64,000 nucleotides of DNA from Dehalococcoidia bacterium (GCA_965262725.1 OZ253555.1:1344001-1408000), one strand, 5' to 3'; positions 43,399 to 53,637 are shown, numbered from the stretch's first letter. Notes: generated by a model not told the origin, from the letters alone. Numbers and translations: made by a program.

Positions 43399-44649
43399 CT
43401 ACTCGTAGCGGTCACCGATCGCGCCGGTCTCCCGGAACGCCTCGATCTGCTCGGGCGTGAAGCCGATCTCGGACAGGACCTCGTCGTTGTGCTCGCCGAC
43501 CAGAGCGGTCGGGCGCTCCCAGGCGGGCGGATCGGGCTCGATCCGCCAGAGGAAGCCGCCCATCTGCTTCGGACCGGTCCAGCGGTGGTCGATGGTCTCG
43601 ATCCAGCGCCGGGCTTCGAGCTGGGGAGAGCCGGGGATGTCGGGGGAGCGCACGACGCGCGCGGCGACGGCGCCCGCCGCCTGGACCGCCTCCGCGAGCG
43701 GGCCGCCGGCGAGATCGCCCGTGGCCTCGGCGATCGCCGCGTCGACGGCGTCGCGATGCCGCAGCCGCCCGGGCACGGTGGCCCAGTCGTGCCGCTCCTC
43801 CGCCCACTCGGGGTGGCCGAGTGCGCCCGCGAGCGCCGCCCACTGGTCGTCGTCTGAGGCCACCAGCACCACCCACTCGTCGTCGCCTGAGGCCGGGTAG
43901 ACGCCGTGCGGGACCACGGTCGGCTCGGCGTTCCCGGTTCTGGGCGGGAGGCGGCGGTTCAGCTCCCAGTCGCCGAGGAGTCCGGGAAACTGCCACACGA
44001 GCCCCTCCCACTGCGACAAGTCGACGAAGAGCCCGACCCCGTCGCGGTCCCGCAGCTCGAGGGCGGTCAGGCAGGCGAAGAGCAGCGTCTGGGAGCCCGT
44101 CGCATCGGAGTGCACCGTCGGCGTCACGTCCTCGAACGGGCCGTCGGGATGGCCCCGGATCGCCATGTAGCCGCTGGTCGCGTCGAGGGCGCTGCCCAGC
44201 GCGGAGCGCCCGATGTAGGGCCCGGTCGATCCCCAGCCGGCGAGCGAGACCATCACGAGGCGCGGGTTCAGCTTCCGCGCCTGCTCCCAGCCGAAGCCGA
44301 GTTGCGCGAGCTTCCCGGCGGAGTATCCCTCGAGGAAGAGGTCGGCACCGGCGATGAGGCGCCTGAGCACCTCCGCTCCCCCCCGTGTCCGCACGTCGAG
44401 CGCGACGTTGCGCTTGTTGCGGTTGCCCTGGTGGTGCAGCGCGTCCCGCTCGTAGACGGGTCCGTCGCCGGGCATCGTCGCGGTGCGCGGCGCGACGGGC
44501 CTCGTCATCGAGTGCCGGGGGTAGGACTCGACCTTGACGACGTCCGCACCGAGGTCGCCCATCATCGACGCGCAGACCGGACCGACCCATGCCTCGGTCA
44601 TCTCGACGACGCGCAGCCCCGCGAGCGCTCTGTTCGCCACAGCTATCAC
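43399..44649 (-). CDS. Family III CoA-transferase (Asp-bearing subunit)
   Basis: GADVVKVES, NRNKR, HSDATG. Confidence 0.9.
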   Translation of the reverse strand: MIAVANRALAGLRVVEMTEAWVGPVCASMMGDLGADVVKVESYPRHSMTRPVAPRTATMPGDGPVYERDALHHQGNRNKRNVALDVRTRGGAEVLRRLIAGADLFLEGYSAGKLAQLGFGWEQARKLNPRLVMVSLAGWGSTGPYIGRSALGSALDATSGYMAIRGHPDGPFEDVTPTVHSDATGSQTLLFACLTALELRDRDGVGLFVDLSQWEGLVWQFPGLLGDWELNRRLPPRTGNAEPTVVPHGVYPASGDDEWVVLVASDDDQWAALAGALGHPEWAEERHDWATVPGRLRHRDAVDAAIAEATGDLAGGPLAEAVQAAGAVAARVVRSPDIPGSPQLEARRWIETIDHRWTGPKQMGGFLWRIEPDPPAWERPTALVGEHNDEVLSEIGFTPEQIEAFRETGAIGDRYE

Positions 44650-45833
44650 CCCGCTCCTGTGGCCACCCCCGCCCGCGCGAGCGCCTGCCGCTCCCCGGGC
44701 GTGTAGCCGAGCTCCGCCAGTATTTCGTCCGTGTGCTCGCCGAGCCGCGGGGAGCGGCGCGCGCGCCAGCCATCGTCCTGCTCGCTCCCGACGCCGCCGA
44801 GCCGGAAGGGCGCACCCGCCACCCGCACCGGGCCGACGCCGGGCTGCTCCACCGTGGCGAACGAGCGCCGGGCGCGCGCCTGCGGATCCTCGAGGATCTC
44901 CGAGACGTCGAGCACCGGGGCGGACATCACGCCGTGCGCCTGCAGATCGTCGAACACCTCGCGCCTGGTGTGCGAGCCCAGGTAGCGCTCCAGCCGCCGG
45001 GCCGTCTCCGGCCAGTCATGCGTCTCCTCCCCGGGCGGTGCCGTGCCCAGGAATCGACAGAGGCGCGCGCCCCACGGCTCCGTCAGGCCGAGGATCACGA
45101 AACCGTCGCGGCAGCGATAGGTCCCGGTCACCGGCGCGGTGCCCCGCTTCGGCGGGGCCGAGAGCCGCTCCGTGCCGGTGAAGCTCCAGTTCACGAATCC
45201 CGTGTCGACGTTGCCGAGCACCGCCTCGACGGTGGCGACATCGACGTCGAGGCGCATCCCCTCCCGCCGCCGGGCACGCCAGACGGCGAGCCCGATGGCG
45301 GCCGCTGTGTGCCCCGCCTGCACGACGGCGGCCTGCGGCCCTCGGCGAAGCGGCGCCCGCCCCGGCGGGCCCTGGCGCTGCATGCGCGTGCTCCACGCCA
45401 TCAGCGACAGATCGACCTCGCGCCGGTCGGCGTAGGGGCCGTCGAGACCGTGCGGTGTCAGCCACACGGTGGCGGGACCGCTCGCGGGATCGAGCAGCGC
45501 GCGGAGGCGCGGCACCTCCGGGGCCGGCAGCTCGCCCAGCACGAGCTCGGCCGTCGCGAAGAGGCGGCGGAGCACGTCGCGCCCGGACGCGGTGGCGACG
45601 TCGAGGACGAGGGAGCGCTTGCCCATGCCGAAGGCGAGGTGGAACGCGCCGCGATCGGGATGTGGGCGGTCGTCCGGGAACGGCGGCTGCCGCCTGAGCT
45701 CGCCGCCGCCGGGCGGCTCGACCGCCACGACGTCGGCTCCGAAATCGGCGAAGCTCTTCGTGGCGGCACCCCCGCCGATGCCGCCTCCGAGCTCCACCAC
45801 GCGCGTGCCGACGAGCGGCTGCTCCACCATCAT
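44646..45833 (-). CDS. Family III CoA-transferase-like subunit (no catalytic Asp)
   Basis: GADVVAVEPPGG, GKRS; GTGA overlap with the downstream CaiB gene. Confidence 0.85.
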   Translation of the reverse strand: MMVEQPLVGTRVVELGGGIGGGAATKSFADFGADVVAVEPPGGGELRRQPPFPDDRPHPDRGAFHLAFGMGKRSLVLDVATASGRDVLRRLFATAELVLGELPAPEVPRLRALLDPASGPATVWLTPHGLDGPYADRREVDLSLMAWSTRMQRQGPPGRAPLRRGPQAAVVQAGHTAAAIGLAVWRARRREGMRLDVDVATVEAVLGNVDTGFVNWSFTGTERLSAPPKRGTAPVTGTYRCRDGFVILGLTEPWGARLCRFLGTAPPGEETHDWPETARRLERYLGSHTRREVFDDLQAHGVMSAPVLDVSEILEDPQARARRSFATVEQPGVGPVRVAGAPFRLGGVGSEQDDGWRARRSPRLGEHTDEILAELGYTPGERQALARAGVATGAG

Positions 45834-46587
45834 GCCTCCGCGCGGCCGCCGTCCGGAGCCGCCCGCCGGTGGACCGGCTGGCGCCCCGATTCGACGGGAT
45901 CGTATCTTCGCACAGGGTGCCCCGTCCCACGCGCACCGGGGGCGAATCGCGCCCGGTGCGCGTGGGACGCTAGTGTCCCGATTCAGGGATGCGCTCTAGA
46001 TATCCGGCGAGGTTGGTGTGTCCCGAAGTCGAAGGGCGGGTGACGTGATGACGTAACCGGTCTGGAGACATGCTCGTCGTTGCCAGCCGGTGCGAGTCCG
46101 GCACGGGTAACTGTCAGGAGGCCCGTTAGCAGGTCGGCGGCGCGGACGGGAAACGGTCCACGTCGAAGCCCGACGTCAAGAGCCCTATCAGGGGGAGCAA
46201 CCAAGCGGTCCGCAGCATCAAGCGAAGCCTGCCGCGTCGTTAACGGATAGTGGAGGAGCCGAGCCCGGCAATTCAGGGCGAAGGCCATGGACGAGGTGAA
46301 GATCCTGAATGCGCGTTGCGCTGCAGCCTCAAGGAACCTCCCGGCGTAAGGGGCGTGGAACGTTTGGAAGGTAGCGACGGGAACGGGAGAAGCCCTCCCC
46401 GGCCCGGCACCCTGCGAGATGGTGTCGGAGCGAGGTGCCCTATAACCGGTCAAAGCCGGGAAGTGGGCAGCTAGCCGGAAGGGTGACGGAGGGGGTCGTA
46501 GTACCGCTTGAGCCGGACGGACAACACAACCGCCGGTGATGGGAAGGACCCCTGCTTTGCTCACGCGTGGGGAGTAGGGATGAATCG

Positions 46588-47131
46588 GTGAGTGCCCAAG
46601 CGGCTAACTCCATCCAAGACAAGGTCCGAACACTACAACGCACGCTTTACCGGGCGGCCAAGGCCGACCCCAATAGACGCTTTCATGCGCTCTACGACAA
46701 GGTTTATCGCAGAGACATTCTGGAGCGCGCGTGGGAGCAGGTGCGTCGCAATCGCGGCGCAGCCGGTATCGACGGCGTCACGCTCGCCGAGGTCGAGCGC
46801 TACGGCGTGGAGCGCCTGCTGGATGAACTGGCCACGGAACTGAAGGAGGGAAGATACCGGGTGCAGCCGAGCCGCCGGGTCTGGATACCCAAGCCCGGTC
46901 GGTCGGAAGAGCGCCCGCTCTCGATTCCTTCGGTCCGCGACCGCATCGTGCAGGCGTCGCTGAAGCTCGTGACGGAGCCGGTCTTCGAGGCCGACTTCCT
47001 GCCATGCAGCTTCGGCTTCCGCCCGAAGCGTTCGGCCCATGACGCCCTGCAGGTCCTCATTGACGAGGCGTGGCGGGGCAGGCGGTGGGTAGTGGAGACG
47101 GACATCGCCTCGTGTTTCGAGTCGATACCGC
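46588..47131 (+). CDS. ltrA: Group II intron reverse transcriptase/maturase, 5' part
   Basis: RFHALYDKV, GAAGIDG, IPKPG..RPLSIPSVRDRIVQ, SFGFRP; start codon uncertain. Confidence 0.9.
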
Positions 47132-47732
47132 GTGCGTCCGGAAGTCGAAGGGGTGGTGACGTGATGACGTGACCGGTCCGGAGACATGCTCGTTGCTGCC
47201 AGCCGGTGAGAGTCCGGCACGGGTAACTGTCAGGAGGCCCGTTAGCAGGTCGGCGGCGTGGACGGGAAACGGTCTGCGTCGAAGCCCGACGTCAAGAGCC
47301 CTATGAGGGGGAGCAAACGTGCGGTCCGCAGCATGACGCGAAGTCTGCCGCGCCGTGAGACTCGCCTGTCTATTGACAGGACCAAGGAGGAGCCGAGCCC
47401 GGGTGGTCAGGGCGAAGGCCATGGACGAGGTGAAGATCCTGGAATGCAGCCTCAAGAAACCTCCCGGCGTATGGGACGTGGAACGTACGGAAGGTAGCGA
47501 CGGGAACCGGAGAAGCCCTCCCCGGCCCGGCACCCTGTGAGAGGGCGTCGGAGCGAGGCGTCCTATAACCGGTCAGAGCCGGGAAGTGGACAGCCAGCCG
47601 GAAGGGTGGCGGAGGGGGTCGTAGTACCGCTGGAGCCGGACGGACAACATAACCGCCGGTGATGGGAAGGACCCCTACTTTGTCCGTGCATGTTGCTGGG
47701 GGTGTGGACTGGTGAGTGCCCCTCGGGGCTAG

Positions 47733-48940
47733 GGGTTCTCTGAACAGGTCGCCGCGTCGTTACTGGAGCACATGCACACTCCGATGACTATATGCGATCA
47801 TGGCACTCCTCCGGGAAAGGGGAGCGCTGCCATGCATCAGCCGACATTCGCGAGAGTCGAGTTCGAGCGGGATGGCTACAAGACGCGCCGCCAGAAGTTC
47901 CTCGAACGGCTGGATGGCCTCGTCCCGTGGCAGAGGTTCGAAGCAGCCATCGAGCCCCACTACCCGAAACCGGGCCGCGGGCGGAGGCCCTACCCGCTCT
48001 CCGTGATGCTGCGCATCCATACCGTGCAACTCTGCTACAACCTCAGCGACCCCGGCATGGAGGATCTGCTCCACGAGGCCGAGTCGGTGCGAGCCTTTTG
48101 CTTCCTCACGCTCTCCGAGCCCATCCCCGACGAGACGACGATCCTCAACTTCCGGCACCTGCTCGAGCGCCACTCCCTGGGTAGCAGGATCCTCCAACTC
48201 ATCAACGAGCACCTCACGAGCAAGGGATTGAAGCTGAGCGAGGGCAGCATCGTGGATGCGACCATCATCTCGGCGCCATCGTCGACGAAGAATCGCGGGC
48301 GGGCGCGGGACCCGGAGATGCATCAGACCAAGAAGGGGAAACAGTGGTTCTTCGGGATGAAGCTGCACATCGGCGCCGACAGGGATACTGGACTGGTCCA
48401 CAACTTCACGACCACGCCTGCGAACGTGTCGGACGTGTCTGAGACGCACCGCCTGCTGCACGGCGAGGAAGCCGAGGTCTACGGCGACGCCGGGTACCGG
48501 GGCGTGCAGAAGAGACCCGAGAACGCGGACTCCAGGGTCAAGGACTGGAACGTGGCGATGCGCCCGGGCCTCCGGCGTGCGCTCGACCCGGAGAGTCCTG
48601 AGGCCGTCGAGGAGAAGCGGAAGGCATCGGTGCGAGCGCTGGTGGAGCACCCGTTCTACAGCGTGAAGCGGCGCTTCGGCTACGCCAAGGTGCGGTACCG
48701 GGGTCTCTTCAAGAACCACGAGCGGTGTGCGGTCTTGCTGGGGTTCCACAACCTGCTCACCGCGAAGCCGCACCGTGCCTGACCGTGGGTGGAGTGCGCC
48801 CTCCCCGCCCCACACGGGGCGAGGAGGGGAGCCACAGGGGCCCGCGAGGGGGCGGATATGACCACTGTCATCGGGAATCCGCCTGAGAGCGCCTGACCGC
48901 GGCGAAACTGGGTCGCTAGACCCACCTGATCAGACTTGCC
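47733..48940 (+). mobile_element. IS5-family element, copy 1 (1208 bp)
   Basis: Imperfect TIRs GGGTTCTCTGAACAGGT / ACCTGATCAGACTTGCC; CTAG direct repeats at 47729 and 48941. Confidence 0.93.
47832..48782 (+). CDS. IS5 family transposase
   Basis: PDETTILNFRHLLE, IVDATII.APSSTKN, FGMKLHIG.D, YGDAGY, RALVEHPF. Confidence 0.95.
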   Translation: MHQPTFARVEFERDGYKTRRQKFLERLDGLVPWQRFEAAIEPHYPKPGRGRRPYPLSVMLRIHTVQLCYNLSDPGMEDLLHEAESVRAFCFLTLSEPIPDETTILNFRHLLERHSLGSRILQLINEHLTSKGLKLSEGSIVDATIISAPSSTKNRGRARDPEMHQTKKGKQWFFGMKLHIGADRDTGLVHNFTTTPANVSDVSETHRLLHGEEAEVYGDAGYRGVQKRPENADSRVKDWNVAMRPGLRRALDPESPEAVEEKRKASVRALVEHPFYSVKRRFGYAKVRYRGLFKNHERCAVLLGFHNLLTAKPHRA

Positions 48941-49205
48941 CTAGCAACCACTTGGTAGGGTTCGAGGCTCTCCGCACATGCTGTACCGGCTGGCCAAGGC
49001 ACGACCCACGTTGTGGGGAGCGCTGCATGCCATCTGGTGAAGGGCATCGGTGAGCCGGATGAGGGAGAACCTCACGTCCGGTTCGATGTGGCAGGGGCTG
49101 GAGACGGACGCTGCTATGGCCGTGGAGTTGGGCACCACCGGGAAACCGGCTTGGAACTGATGCGCCACCGCCTACGGCTCGCACCGCGCCAGCCCCTGAC
49201 CCTAC

Positions 49206-49999
49206 ACGACCGTCTGATGACGGCCGTCGAGGAACGGATATGCGACCGCAATCTCCTGAAGCTGGTACGGGCGATGCTGCGTGCCGGTGTGATGGAGTCG
49301 GGGGTCGTGCAGCACAGCGCGACGGGTACGCCGCAGGGCGGGGTGATGTCCCCGCTGCTGGCCAATGTCTACCTGCACCGGTTGGACCGGGACTGGGAGG
49401 CGAAGGGTGATGGCGTGCTGGTGCGCTATGCGGATGACCTCGTGGTGCTCTGCCGGAGCCGGGAGGAAGCGGAGCGGGCGTTGGCCCTGCTGCGTGACCT
49501 GCTGGGTGAGCTCGGACTGGAGCTCAAGGCGGAGAAGACGCGCATCGTGCACCTGCGGGAGGGAGGCGAGGGGCTGGAGTTCCTCGGCTTCGAGCATCGC
49601 TGGGTACGTGCGAAGCGCAACAAGAATATCCAGTTCCTCGCACGCTGGCCCTCACGGCGAGCGATGCAGCGGGCGCGGGACCGCATCCGTGAAATCACGG
49701 CGCGGTTGCGTCTGCTGCTGAGTCCCCGGCAGGTCGTGGAGGAAGTCAATCGCTACCTCCGCGGCTGGATGAGCTACTTCCGCTACGGCAACTCGGCGAG
49801 GGCGTTCGACGTCCTGCACTGGTTTGCCATGTGGAGACTCAAACTCTGGCTGGGGAAGCGGTTGCGTTGGCGGCGACGCCATCGCGGGCACCCGTTTCCC
49901 GTCGCCGACCGTCTGGGGCTCATCTCGCTAGCTGGACAGCGCGTCGTGGCACCACGGCCATATCGACCGTGGCGGGGCACCCCGCATGCCGCCCGGTGA
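49206..49999 (+). CDS. ltrA: Group II intron reverse transcriptase/maturase, 3' part (no En domain)
   Basis: GTPQGGVMSPLLAN.YL, RYADD, FLGF, LRGWMSYF. Confidence 0.92.
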
Positions 50000-50159
50000 A
50001 GGGCATCGGTGAGCCGGATGAGGGAAAACCTCACGTCCGGTTCGAGGCGGCAGGGGCTGGAGACGGACGATGCTACGGCTGTGGAGATGGGCGCCACCGG
50101 GAAACCGGCCTGGCAATATGCGCCACCGCCTACGGCTCGCACCGCGCCAGCCCCTGACC

Positions 50160-51212
50160 CTACTCAAGGATCTGGTCCGCGGACTTGTGCCAGATGAAGG
50201 GCCTCGGATTCTCGTTCCAGCTGGCGACCCACATCTCCACTGAGCGGATCAGATCAGGGACGCTATGGTGCGTGCCGCGCCGGAGCCACTTGCTGGTGAG
50301 CTCTGCAAACCAGCGCTCCACGAGGTTCATCCAGGAGCTGTAGGTCGGCGTGAAATGGAAGGTGAAGCGGGGATGGCGCTGGAGCCAGCGCTGGATGGCG
50401 GGCGTGCGGTGCGTGGAGACGTTGTCGAGCACGACATGCACCGCCAGCTCACGGGGAACGCTTTGGTCGATGAGGGCGAGGAACTGCTGGAACTCCCGAG
50501 CCCGGTGCCGGGGGGTCATCTCCGTGATCACGCATCCCGAGGCGACATCGAGCGCCGCGTAGAGGTTCGTCGTGCCGTGACGGATGTAGTCGTGCGTCTG
50601 GCGGGCGGGGACGCCGGGCATCATCGGCACCGTCGGCGCGGTGCGGTCGAGTGCCTGGATCTGGGTCTTCTCGTCCACGCACAGCACAACCGCCGCGTCG
50701 GGCGGGTTGAGATAGAGCCCGGCCACGTCGCGCACCTTGTCGATGAACTGCGGGTCGGGCGACAGCTTGAAGCTCTCCACGAGGCGCGGCTTCAGGCCGA
50801 AGGCGCGCCAGATCCTGGAGATCCCCGACTGCGACATCCCGAGCGCGGCTGCCATCGATCGGGTCGACCAGTGCGTCGCGTTGGGAGGCTGCTCCTCCAG
50901 CGTCGTGACGATCACCGCTTCCACCTGTGCATCGGCGATCGTGCGCGGCGCCCCGGGGCGCGGCTCATCCTGTAGCCCATCGAGCCGCCCCTGCGCAAAG
51001 CGCCGGCGCCACTTGCCGACGGTGACCGGATGGCAATCGAGCGCCGCGGCGATCGCTTTATTCGATGTCCCCTCGGCCGCTGCCAGGACGATGCGACAGC
51101 GCAGCGCCAGCGCCTGGGCCGATGTCGGCCGGCGCGCCCACCGCTCCAGCGTCTCACGCTCCTCGTCGCTCAGGACGATCGCGACCGTCGGCCGTCCGAT
51201 TCGGATGCTCAT
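50160..51212 (-). CDS. IS630 transposase, C-terminus truncated by the antisense intron
   Basis: HTH region, VDEK / LDN / NLVERWF DDE triad; native tail lies at 46015-45970. Confidence 0.93.
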   Translation of the reverse strand: MSIRIGRPTVAIVLSDEERETLERWARRPTSAQALALRCRIVLAAAEGTSNKAIAAALDCHPVTVGKWRRRFAQGRLDGLQDEPRPGAPRTIADAQVEAVIVTTLEEQPPNATHWSTRSMAAALGMSQSGISRIWRAFGLKPRLVESFKLSPDPQFIDKVRDVAGLYLNPPDAAVVLCVDEKTQIQALDRTAPTVPMMPGVPARQTHDYIRHGTTNLYAALDVASGCVITEMTPRHRAREFQQFLALIDQSVPRELAVHVVLDNVSTHRTPAIQRWLQRHPRFTFHFTPTYSSWMNLVERWFAELTSKWLRRGTHHSVPDLIRSVEMWVASWNENPRPFIWHKSADQILE

Positions 51213-51297
51213 GACACTCCAGAGTCTGCCCCATGGGGCAAAACCCCGCTGTGCCACCATACCCGTTATCTGTCGCTATTACGAATCAGGACACTAG

Positions 51298-52505
51298 GGG
51301 TTCTCTGAACAGGTCGCCGCGTCGTTACTGGAGCACATGCACACTCCGATGACTATATGCGATCATGGCACTCCTCCGGGAAAGGGGAGCGCTGCCATGC
51401 ATCAGCCGACATTCGCGAGAGTCGAGTTCGAGCGGGATGGCTACAAGACGCGCCGCCAGAAGTTCCTCGAACGGCTGGATGGCCTCGTCCCGTGGCAGAG
51501 GTTCGAAGCAGCCATCGAGCCCCACTACCCGAAACCGGGCCGCGGGCGGAGGCCCTACCCGCTCTCCGTGATGCTGCGCATCCATACCGTGCAACTCTGC
51601 TACAACCTCAGCGACCCCGGCATGGAGGATCTGCTCCACGAGGCCGAGTCGGTGCGAGCCTTTTGCTTCCTCACGCTCTCCGAGCCCATCCCCGACGAGA
51701 CGACGATCCTCAACTTCCGGCACCTGCTCGAGCGCCACTCCCTGGGTAGCAGGATCCTCCAACTCATCAACGAGCACCTCACGAGCAAGGGATTGAAGCT
51801 GAGCGAGGGCAGCATCGTGGATGCGACCATCATCTCGGCGCCATCGTCGACGAAGAATCGCGGGCGGGCGCGGGACCCGGAGATGCATCAGACCAAGAAG
51901 GGGAAACAGTGGTTCTTCGGGATGAAGCTGCACATCGGCGCCGACAGGGATACTGGACTGGTCCACAACTTCACGACCACGCCTGCGAACGTGTCGGACG
52001 TGTCTGAGACGCACCGCCTGCTGCACGGCGAGGAAGCCGAGGTCTACGGCGACGCCGGGTACCGGGGCGTGCAGAAGAGACCCGAGAACGCGGACTCCAG
52101 GGTCAAGGACTGGAACGTGGCGATGCGCCCGGGCCTCCGGCGTGCGCTCGACCCGGAGAGTCCTGAGGCCGTCGAGGAGAAGCGGAAGGCATCGGTGCGA
52201 GCGCTGGTGGAGCACCCGTTCTACAGCGTGAAGCGGCGCTTCGGCTACGCCAAGGTGCGGTACCGGGGTCTCTTCAAGAACCACGAGCGGTGTGCGGTCT
52301 TGCTGGGGTTCCACAACCTGCTCACCGCGAAGCCGCACCGTGCCTGACCGTGGGTGGAGTGCGCCCTCCCCGCCCCACACGGGGCGAGGAGGGGAGCCAC
52401 AGGGGCCCGCGAGGGGGCGGATATGACCACTGTCATCGGGAATCCGCCTGAGAGCGCCTGACCGCGGCGAAACTGGGTCGCTAGACCCACCTGATCAGAC
52501 TTGCC
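51298..52505 (+). mobile_element. IS5-family element, copy 2 (appears identical to copy 1)
   Basis: Same ends and 1208-bp length; CTAG direct repeats at 51294 and 52506. Confidence 0.93.
51397..52347 (+). CDS. IS5 family transposase
   Basis: Translation identical to 47832-48782. Confidence 0.95.
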   Translation: MHQPTFARVEFERDGYKTRRQKFLERLDGLVPWQRFEAAIEPHYPKPGRGRRPYPLSVMLRIHTVQLCYNLSDPGMEDLLHEAESVRAFCFLTLSEPIPDETTILNFRHLLERHSLGSRILQLINEHLTSKGLKLSEGSIVDATIISAPSSTKNRGRARDPEMHQTKKGKQWFFGMKLHIGADRDTGLVHNFTTTPANVSDVSETHRLLHGEEAEVYGDAGYRGVQKRPENADSRVKDWNVAMRPGLRRALDPESPEAVEEKRKASVRALVEHPFYSVKRRFGYAKVRYRGLFKNHERCAVLLGFHNLLTAKPHRA

Positions 52506-52536
52506 CTAGAGGGGCGCCCGGAAGGCGGGAGCGGCG

Positions 52537-53637
52537 ATGGGCACCGAGCCGCTGCGGGCGGGACTGATCGGCGCGAGCGCCGAGGGGCGATGGGGCGCGC
52601 TCGCGCACGTTCCGGCGCTTCAGGCGCTCCCCGAATTCGATCTGCGCGCCGTCTGCGCCACCCGGCCCGAGACCGCGCGCGCCTCTCAGCGTGCGTACGG
52701 CGTTCCCCTCGCCTTCCACGATCACCGCGAGCTCGTCGCCCACCCGGAGATCGACGTCGTCGTCATCGCGGTGCGCGTGCCGCACCACGCCGAGCTGACG
52801 CACGCCGCGATTGCCGCCGGCAAGCACGTCGTGACCGAGTGGCCGCTCGCCCGCGATTCCGTCGAGGCGCGGCGGATGCTCGAGGCCGCCGAGGCCTCAG
52901 GCGTGCGCCACGCGGTCGGGCTGCAGGCGCGCACGAGTCCCGCCGTACTCGCCATCCGCGAGCTCGTCGACGGGGGCTTCGTGGGGGAGCCGCTCTCGGT
53001 CTCGGTCCGTCACGTGGCCCCGTTCGCCGGCGGCGGCGGGCGCACGACCGCGGGCGCGTGGGCGTCGCGCCGCTCCGGCGGCGCGACGATGCTCTCGATA
53101 CGCACCGGCCACGACCTCGACATGCTCCGCTTCTGTCTCGGCGAGCCGACCAGGCTCTCGGCCCGCGTGCGGACGCTTCGGCCCTGGCGGCTGACCGACA
53201 CCGGCGAGGAGACAGAGACCGACGCTCCGGACTCGATCCAGGTCACCGCCGAGCTCACGAGCGGAGCCACCGCGTCTCTGCACATCGGCGGCCACCCCGC
53301 GCCCGCGACCGGGTGGCGGATGGAGCTCCACGGCACGGACGGGACGCTCGTGGCGGAGACGCCCGGCCTCGTGCAGTGGGGCGCGATCCGCATCAGTGGC
53401 GCGCGCCGCGGCGAGGAGCTGCGCGAGCTGCCGGTGCCGGGGCGTCACCACTGGGTTCCGGCGGAGGTCCCGCCCGGCGAGCCCTACAACACCGCCCAGC
53501 TGTTGCGCCGCTTCGCCGGGGCGGTGTACGAGGGGCGGGAGATGGATCCGGACTTTCGGACGGCGCTCTCGATGCACGAGCTGCTCGACGCCATCCAGCG
53601 CTCCTCCGACGAGGCGCGGGAGATCGTGCTCGGCTGA
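52537..53637 (+). CDS. Gfo/Idh/MocA family oxidoreductase
   Basis: GLIGAS...AHVPAL, AGKHVVTEWPLA, GHDLD. Confidence 0.9.
   Translation: MGTEPLRAGLIGASAEGRWGALAHVPALQALPEFDLRAVCATRPETARASQRAYGVPLAFHDHRELVAHPEIDVVVIAVRVPHHAELTHAAIAAGKHVVTEWPLARDSVEARRMLEAAEASGVRHAVGLQARTSPAVLAIRELVDGGFVGEPLSVSVRHVAPFAGGGGRTTAGAWASRRSGGATMLSIRTGHDLDMLRFCLGEPTRLSARVRTLRPWRLTDTGEETETDAPDSIQVTAELTSGATASLHIGGHPAPATGWRMELHGTDGTLVAETPGLVQWGAIRISGARRGEELRELPVPGRHHWVPAEVPPGEPYNTAQLLRRFAGAVYEGREMDPDFRTALSMHELLDAIQRSSDEAREIVLG

Follow-up and report, generated by a model that had tools for sequence, protein, structure and literature searches.

We analyzed a 64,000-nt window of DNA (the whole stretch considered here), corresponding to positions 1344001–1408000 of a 3,674,403-bp single-contig metagenome-assembled Dehalococcoidia genome (guanine–cytosine (GC) content 70.6%, completeness 91.55%, contamination 2.97%), and found that window positions 45970–52509 (~6.5 kb) hold a four-layer nest of mobile elements. 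From the outside inward, an IS630-family insertion sequence (IS) contains a 2074-nt group II intron encoding a reverse transcriptase (RT), which contains an 862-nt group II intron without an open reading frame (ORF), which in turn contains a 1208-bp IS5-family element. A second, identical IS5 adjoins the IS630 element, and everything lies at one host CTAG. We listed ORFs, searched Rfam and Pfam, read positions 45500–53200 directly, and compared every piece with the entire genome. The nest is real and was confirmed base by base: a first-pass annotation had proposed this order of layers, and all of its boundaries were exact when recomputed. We consider it very probable that the stack arose by successive site-specific insertions, through three mechanisms, in a genome overrun by such elements. 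Positions below refer to the window unless they are given as genome positions.

The base of the nest is an IS630-family element on the minus strand. Elements of this family usually insert into the TA within CTAG, and CTAG is also the usual target of IS5 elements. The left TA target duplication was read directly inside the host C-TA-G (45971–45972), and the right one (51295–51296) is flanked by C51294 and G51297, the four bases forming a new CTAG that is the left target copy of IS5 copy 2. Between them, the element is divided into a 43-nt arm with the transposase 3′ end and the terminal inverted repeat GTGTCCCGATTC (45973–46015) and a main arm with the transposase gene (50164–51294; Pfam DDE_3, E = 7.6e-24, plus HTH_32/HTH_29/HTH_23); the two arms are contiguous in intron-free copies. 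The assignment to the IS630 family follows from the DDE_3 transposase with its N-terminal helix-turn-helix, the TA duplication, and terminal inverted repeats that match at the first 12 of 13 terminal bases (GTGTCC(C/T)GATTC). The same genome contains six full-length intron-free copies at 99.5–99.6% identity and one at 96%. All seven are flanked as ...CTA|element|TAG..., placing the TA inside CTAG, and with ends of the form GTGTCC...GGACAC an insertion into C-TA-G regenerates CTAG on both sides.

Removal of the outer intron (46016–50163) had been claimed to restore the end of the IS630 transposase. The deletion does yield the tail ...ADQILDNLAGYLERIPESGH followed by a stop codon, and the same tail is present in six of the seven intron-free copies, the seventh (the 96% identical one) differing at two residues. 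With the intron in place, the window transposase terminates as ...ADQILE at the intron junction, and its last 16 residues are absent. The window IS630 would thus be mobile only if this truncated protein is still functional or if intact copies act in trans, and six intact IS630 transposase genes are available elsewhere in the genome. The outer intron is on the plus strand and the transposase gene on the minus strand, an antisense arrangement in which splicing is unable to restore the transposase mRNA.

The limits of the outer intron were set by the intron-free IS630 copies; it begins with GUGUG and ends with ...CUAC at 50163. Its 5′ segment (46016–47131, plus strand) comprises domains I–III and the start of domain IV, with the first 188 codons of the RT ORF and the first base of His189 (46567–47131; positions 1–83 of 205 in the Pfam RVT_1 profile). 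Its 3′ segment (49206–50163, plus strand) comprises the rest of the ORF, up to 49999 (RVT_1 positions 90–204 and the GIIM maturase domain), and domains V–VI. Domain I was recognized by Rfam RF02003 (group-II-D1D4-4) at 46084–46220 (95.3 bits vs. a gathering threshold of 49), and domains V and VI by RF00029 at 50009–50076 (41.5 bits vs. 40). The latter model put the intron end at 50076 because domain VI is long: in the predicted folds it measures ~115–120 nt in both introns (50044–50163 and 49085–49205), with a branched insertion above the basal stem. In the outer intron, the minimum-energy fold gives a domain V of ~34 nt with a 2-nt bulge (50011–50043), and the predicted domain VI is a long stem, GGCAGGGGCUGG...CCAGCCCCUG-A-CC, with a bulged A at 50157, 7 nt from the 3′ end.

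Left unspliced, the RT frame runs into the inner intron and meets a stop at 47172; once joined, it encodes 452 amino acids with no internal stop. The protein carries RVT_1 with YADD and the GIIM maturase domain, and a Pfam search found no endonuclease domain in it. Its closest PDB matches were 7uim (E = 5.8e-27) and 6ar1 (E = 1.1e-25), both small RTs without an endonuclease domain, and its closest plasmid-borne relatives were actinobacterial RTs at 56–61% identity.

The inner intron (47132–49205) begins with GUGCG and ends with ...CUAC. IS5 copy 1 separates its 5′ segment (47132–47732, plus strand; intron positions 1–601) from its 3′ segment (48941–49205, plus strand), which starts with the duplicated CTAG (48941–48944) and includes domains V–VI as identified by RF00029, D5 models, and folding. 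RF02003 matched domain I at 47200–47336 (102.8 bits vs. 49), and the predicted fold places domain V, with its 2-nt bulge, at 49052–49084 and the bulged A of domain VI at 49199, again 7 nt from the 3′ end. Rfam domain I hits, domain V/VI hits, and folds agree with the earlier reading of both elements as group II introns, except that one Rfam score for the inner intron is below its gathering threshold (given below).

Deletion of IS5 copy 1 with one CTAG (1212 nt) leaves an 862-nt unit, as the first-pass annotation had stated, and this unit occurs 24 times elsewhere in the genome, uninterrupted and 100% identical over positions 1–862. With four interrupted or truncated copies, including that of the window, the genome contains 28 copies in total. 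The inner and outer introns share 86% identity over the first 544–551 nt and 89% over the last 197 nt. Furthermore, the inner intron aligns with an RT intron of G003, a genome of the same genus, as two blocks (1–664 and 666–862) between which the ORF is missing. Judged by these alignments, the inner intron is an ORF-deleted relative of the outer one, its ORF having been lost from domain IV.

Deletion of the inner intron joins C|AC into His189, gives ...DIASCFESIPHDRLMTAVEERI..., and restores the stop-free RT frame as had been predicted. The uninterrupted RT intron of G003 reads ...DIVSCFESIPHDRLMAAVEERI... at this place, and the G003 copy of the outer intron, 87% identical over positions 1–2074, is continuous through ...SCFESIPHDRLM.... 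The two introns have the same orientation, and the outer sequence is exactly restored when the inner one is removed; they form a twintron, and 11 other copies of the outer intron are twintrons without IS5. The inner intron interrupts the RT at DIASCFESIP|H, between RVT_1 positions 83 and 90, within a DIxSCFESIPH stretch that we take to be RT motif 3. Because the RT core is split in this way, no downstream start could yield an active enzyme.

IS5 copy 1 (47733–48940, plus strand; 1208 bp, transposase ORF 47772–48782) sits within what is left of domain IV in the inner intron, between the CTAGs at 47729–47732 and 48941–48944, and copy 2 (51298–52505, plus strand; transposase ORF 51337–52347) lies between those at 51294–51297 and 52506–52509. 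They had been described as twins, and they are indeed identical to the letter; copy 1 is also identical to nine further genomic copies. DDE_Tnp_1 (E = 1.1e-23) and DUF772 domains, with ends of the form GG..TCTGA.CAGGT (13 of the first 25 positions matching), place them in the IS5 family. Perfect 4-bp duplications flank 17 of 17 genomic copies (CTAG in 15, CTCG in one, CTAA in one). The target of copy 1 was the inner intron's own CTAG (intron positions 598–601), just past the former RT start, and among the 28 inner introns only the window copy contains IS5. Most simply, this insertion was the last event, and it may impair binding of protein to its host intron copy. As for copy 2, the IS630 element regenerates CTAG at each of its ends, so that insertion of IS630 first or of IS5 first gives the identical sequence and the order cannot be read from it.

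Seven of the 17 IS5 copies adjoin an IS630-type end, more than a preference for CTAG by itself would lead one to expect, and in all seven it is the left end of IS5 that makes the contact (two-sided p ~0.016). Six of these are at genome positions 189054, 741998, 1417606, 1631301, 3510418, and 2580723, and the seventh is at window position 51298; the same arrangement of IS630 (transposase 3′ end) and IS5 is found at five different loci. This abutment could reflect a target preference beyond CTAG or insertion of IS630 beside IS5.

The intermediate states that the nest implies (intron-free IS630, uninterrupted RT intron, and IS5-free inner intron), for which a search had been suggested, were all found in the same genome or in G003. 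We also compared positions 45700–51330 with Logan contigs from four public runs, in which contigs break at repeat borders. These contigs show the intron-free IS630 joint (runs X1 and X8), the uninterrupted RT intron (in X5 and X8 but not in X1), and the IS5-free inner intron (in X1 and X5). An X1 contig extends from the unique flank through 45973 to 45999, although X1 could be the sample from which the genome came and does not count as independent evidence. An X8 contig diverges from the window at 45973, which hints at a different state at the host CTAG in that sample.

These comparisons bear on whether the nest could be a chimera of identical repeats formed during long-read metagenome assembly. 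The contig is metagenome-assembled and holds 28, 17, and 12 near-identical copies of the parts concerned, conditions under which such a chimera could form. However, each junction has the correct target duplication, as illustrated by intron CTAG 598–601 around IS5 copy 1; no other inner intron copy holds an IS5; the X1 contig links the unique flank across 45973 to 45999; and IS5 copy 1 is only ~1.8 kb from the unique left flank. In addition, intron strands follow the replichores over the whole contig (see below), which argues that the large-scale assembly is sound. An assembly chimera is thus extremely improbable.

The outer intron has 12 copies in the genome, which are 99.8–100% identical. Each follows ...GAGGTTG and sits 43 nt into an IS630-type end; the home is the 1174-bp IS630 in three cases, a 181-bp miniature in seven, and mixed in two. 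The miniature is an IS630 derivative of ~181 bp (43 nt + 138 nt, with ends GTGTCCTGAATTGG...GGGACAC) that retains the intron target and is the commonest home of the outer intron (genome 1183392–1186508 and six other loci); five more copies or close relatives of it are without the intron. In the mixed copies (genome 548384 and 2978475), the 5′ exon is of the miniature type and the 3′ exon of the full-length IS630 type, which suggests recombination between twintron copies.

We then related insertions to replication strands. The dnaA gene is located at genome 477,872–478,072, and cumulative GC skew is lowest at 0.40 Mb and peaks at 2.51 Mb. The inferred lagging-strand template carries 10 of the 12 outer introns, three of the three introns of a sister RT-intron family, and 11–12 of 12 ectopic insertions of the inner intron, that is, 24–25 of 27 independent intron insertions (binomial p ~5e-5 to 6e-6). 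Conversely, only 5 of 14 unoccupied outer targets are in the favourable orientation, vs. 10 of 12 occupied ones (Fisher p = 0.021). Such a lagging-strand bias is expected of endonuclease-less introns such as RmInt1.

Another IS630 of this genome (3131580–3135689; 99.6–99.8% identity) already carries the twintron between its two arms, without IS5, so that the block in the window could have arrived pre-formed. An IS630 preloaded with the twintron (~4.1 kb) would then have been moved whole into the host CTAG by the transposase of intact copies, and only the IS5 elements would have inserted here. The window IS630 has retained both inverted repeats and both TA duplications, and the six intact transposase genes are usable in trans. 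Yet no donor is evident, because the window IS630 arm differs by ~0.4–0.5% from every other copy, and 14 outer targets are still empty, with an occupancy that tracks the replication strand as expected for homing and not for transposition of loaded copies. We therefore consider arrival as a loaded IS630 unlikely. Of the first-pass annotation, the order of layers, the twin IS5, and the single CTAG between two divergent genes all hold; given the loaded copy, accumulation in place is likely but not assured.

In 12 of 12 outer introns the same codon is occupied by the inner intron, once by two copies in tandem, and the sister RT-intron family (75–81% identical) has it at an identical 35-nt site in three of three copies. 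A genome-wide search allowing up to four substitutions returned no unoccupied inner-intron site, as against 14 unoccupied outer-intron sites, and tblastn with the joined RT gave no hit spanning residue 188/189 in either family. The RT site is uninterrupted in four of four copies in the related genomes G003 and G008. Among the other 300 of 301 class-level genomes, many of them incomplete, none yielded the ORF-less form, with only two candidates scored in each.

Loading of every RT intron of both families at the same codon, with no empty inner site, is what would be seen if the twintron were itself the mobile unit, the outer lariat retrohoming with the unspliced inner intron inside it. Composite mobility is named as a possible route to twintrons in passages of Mohr et al. 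(2010; PMC2882425). Several features speak against it, however. The 24 uninterrupted inner copies are 100% identical, whereas 5 of the 12 outer copies differ at 1–2 positions within their first 1116 nt, and passages of the same paper take this identity pattern in Thermosynechococcus elongatus as a sign of recent separate invasion (PMC2882425). Moreover, the inner intron has moved alone to 12 ectopic sites, and its presence in two RT families that are only 75–81% identical implies a separate invasion at least once. Movement as a unit is accordingly a possibility that we rate somewhat below an even chance.

Target recognition was investigated through putative exon-binding sites (EBS) and the intron-binding sites (IBS) that they pair with. 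EBS loops, which vary with the target, were assigned from an alignment and from three introns with different 5′ exons. In the outer intron, the proposed EBS2 CGGAUA (46244–46249) pairs with TATCCG at −15 to −10, and the proposed EBS1 CAAUU (46269–46273) pairs with GGTTG at five of five positions, including two G-U pairs. In the inner intron, the proposed EBS2 GACUCG (47359–47364) and EBS1 GUGGU (47403–47407) pair with CGAGTC and ACCGC, respectively, and for the G003 intron we propose EBS2 AGCCA (with TGGCT) and EBS1 GGAA (with TTCC). Two other candidates for outer EBS1, the loop at 46198–46215 and AACCUC at 46331–46336, were rejected as being either the same despite different targets or located 5′ of EBS2.

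Pairing of the inner intron was scored at 15 kinds of site; random genome positions gave a mean of 4.85 (standard deviation 1.61), with 1% reaching 9. The RT sites score 11 of 11 (6/6 plus 5/5), and the 12 ectopic sites score 8, 10, 10, 8, 10, 11, 7, 5, 10, 10, 8, and 9 of 11, that is, at least 8 at 10 of 12. The tandem pair of 862-nt introns, which occupies the RT site of one outer intron (genome 549500–551223), stands apart: its second copy is not a product of ordinary homing, because the 3′ terminus of the first copy stands in for its 5′ exon (IBS1 4/5, IBS2 1/6).

Several observations weigh against successive site-specific insertions as set out here. Among the matches listed, no public contig crosses a nest junction with 31 nt on each side, and the long-range linkage of identical repeats therefore rests on the single-contig assembly. 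A metatranscriptome (X19; share 0.08) contributed four contigs that cover parts of IS5 and IS630 only, with mismatches, and neither intron received any cover. The RF00029 match to domains V and VI of the inner intron (49050–49205) scored 37.5 bits, under the gathering threshold of 40, and neither the PDB matches, the plasmid matches, nor the passages of PMC3552965 gave an intron class. Regarding target recognition, the outer IBS2 in the fixed register −14 to −9 reached only two to three of six pairs by script; the pairing of six of six appears only one position further out, in a register read by eye. Of 11 possible pairs, two of the 12 ectopic inner sites reach only 5 and 7, and the tandem copy reaches 5. 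Finally, origin and terminus were taken from dnaA and GC skew with a G-rich leading strand assumed, and the replichore limits were set after the intron strands had been seen, though dnaA and GC skew are themselves independent of the introns.

With these points in mind, successive insertion would have proceeded roughly as follows. IS630 would have transposed into the TA of the host CTAG, and IS5 into CTAG, in either order. An endonuclease-less, IIB-like intron would have retrohomed to its usual target, 43 nt in from the IS630 end, guided by EBS1 and EBS2 and probably primed by nascent lagging strands; its antisense position relative to the transposase is set by the orientation of that target. 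The 862-nt ORF-deleted relative, with EBS loops of its own, would have retrohomed into the DIxSCFESIPH stretch of the RT gene, and, should the twintron have travelled whole, both introns may have arrived in a single event. The other IS5 would have entered last, into the CTAG of the inner intron's domain IV remnant. We infer that both introns splice and that RT is made only after removal of the inner intron; the enzyme that serves the ORF-less intron, and the order in which IS630 or IS5, the outer intron, and the inner intron entered this site, are inferred in the same manner.

A further reading would make the ORF-less intron an obligate gatekeeper of RT supply. The inner intron would have to be removed first, probably by the same RT/maturase, which would turn retromobility into a self-reinforcing on/off circuit. 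We consider it doubtful that such a circuit operates. If it does, the trigger might be an unrelated intron family with ~10 uninterrupted RT genes, and IS630 and the 181-bp miniature might carry the composite about in one piece. The unrelated RT elements, whose RT is ~38% identical (RVT_1 was found in L039), have ~10 uninterrupted copies (genome 337533, 1850342, 1925272, 2028661, 2473167, 2476554, 2594701, 3305688, 3360957, and 3505816); they are probably another group II intron family and could in principle supply protein in trans.

Other nests of the genome involve further elements. At genome 732582–737446, a sister-family RT intron contains the 862-nt ORF-less intron, and the latter contains a third group II intron of 1923 bp (L038, genome 734423–736345). 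This third intron starts with GTGCG, encodes RVT_1 and GIIM domains in an RT that is ~39% identical, and is inserted at position 722/723 of the ORF-less intron, in the terminal loop of domain V. Other twintrons have been hit by a 2.6-kb IS21-family element (IstB plus a Mu-transposase C-terminal domain; ~15–18 genomic copies) or by a 1.4-kb IS256-family element (Transposase_mut), for example at genome 1591544–1594170 and 1422686–1424103 and in other copies. The outer intron at genome 3118904–3125899 holds both an IS21-family and an IS256-family element besides its inner intron.

After removal of all layers, the host site reads ...GGGACG-CTAG-AGGGG.... To its left is a family III CoA-transferase gene (44646–45833, minus strand; Pfam CoA_transf_3, E = 5.8e-54), whose orthologues in the same-genus genomes G001 and G003 are 84% identical, and to its right is a Gfo/Idh/MocA oxidoreductase gene (52537–53637, plus strand; Pfam GFO_IDH_MocA plus C-terminal domains). 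The two genes are adjacent in G003 and G001 (84–88% identity), where the spacer between them is short and diverged and the CTAG is not conserved. The statement that no host coding sequence was hit was borne out, since the site lies in the spacer, 28 nt before the oxidoreductase start codon (52537), with the stack on the upstream side. Because of this short distance, the stack probably cuts the oxidoreductase gene off from its native promoter, and transcripts from that promoter would run through the outer intron in the sense direction. The spacer also holds a perfect inverted repeat of 15 bp that encloses an 11-nt loop (CCCACGCGCACCGGG...CCCGGTGCGCGTGGG; 45926–45966) and stops 4 nt short of the CTAG. 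It has no conserved counterpart in G003 or G001 and could be an operator or a terminator-like hairpin.

Comparable systems have been described. In T. elongatus BP-1, according to passages of PMC2882425, 28 TeI3/TeI4 introns include 17 that are ORF-less through one deletion, and five twintrons lie in RT ORFs; an intron ORF interrupted by an IS (TeI4g::ISEL2f) and introns homing into a conserved IS site are also described there. The Dehalococcoidia genome resembles the situation given in those passages in intron proliferation, ORF-less derivatives, good EBS/IBS sites, twintrons of an ORF-less intron in an RT intron, and IS targets (PMC2882425). In that account, however, the inner intron lies between the first two ATGs, a splice-free downstream RT start is possible, and two of eight ORFs are continuous, whereas here the RT domain is split, bypass is impossible, and the inner intron is present in 15 of 15 copies from two families (PMC2882425). 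The T. elongatus proteins are described in the same passages as having an endonuclease domain, unlike the Dehalococcoidia protein (PMC2882425), and the host there is a cyanobacterium.

RmInt1 of Sinorhizobium meliloti is presented in passages of the review by Toro et al. (2018; PMC5894124) as endonuclease-less, with a IIB-type RNA and a natural target in the IS630-family element ISRm2011-2 and its close relatives, and as inserting ectopically at sites with similar IBS, with the lagging-strand template favoured. The lack of an endonuclease domain, the home in an IS630-family element, the ectopic sites, and the lagging-strand preference are thus common to that description and to our intron (PMC5894124). 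Here the intron is antisense to the transposase and uses a 181-bp miniature in addition.

Nested group II introns of Methanosarcina acetivorans were reportedly described by Dai and Zimmerly in 2003. Passages of PMC4424553 state that RT-encoding and ORF-less introns of this organism home time and again into related introns and nest up to five deep while host coding sequence is spared. Those nests, as described there, consist of introns within introns, whereas two of the four layers here are DNA transposons and the base is an insertion sequence (PMC4424553). Additionally, a functional bacterial twintron in Trichodesmium is described in part of PMC4649490. Every layer of the nest therefore has a published precedent. 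A limited literature search found no publication on a stack of IS630, intron, ORF-less intron, and IS, or on full occupancy of RT copies. Three features are particular to this case: the stack is both deep and clean, the intron is antisense within IS630 and within the miniature, and all RT genes of two families are occupied at a site that offers no bypass.

The nest is a clean natural record of parasites on parasites, in which each insertion is reversible on paper and the intermediates survive in the same genome. It also matters for annotation: where such nests are left unresolved, introns and the genes for RT and transposase are overlooked or broken up. Moreover, it extends the cyanobacterial pattern of intron proliferation, with ORF-less derivatives, homing into mobile elements, and replication-linked strand bias, to a soil/aquatic Dehalococcoidia bacterium. 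The total occupation of the RT genes of two families by an intron without a protein of its own poses the question of how RT is produced and of whether the inner intron acts as a throttle or switch of retromobility. Should the introns splice in sequence, they could offer a compact model of how introns depend on one another when a single splicing protein serves them.

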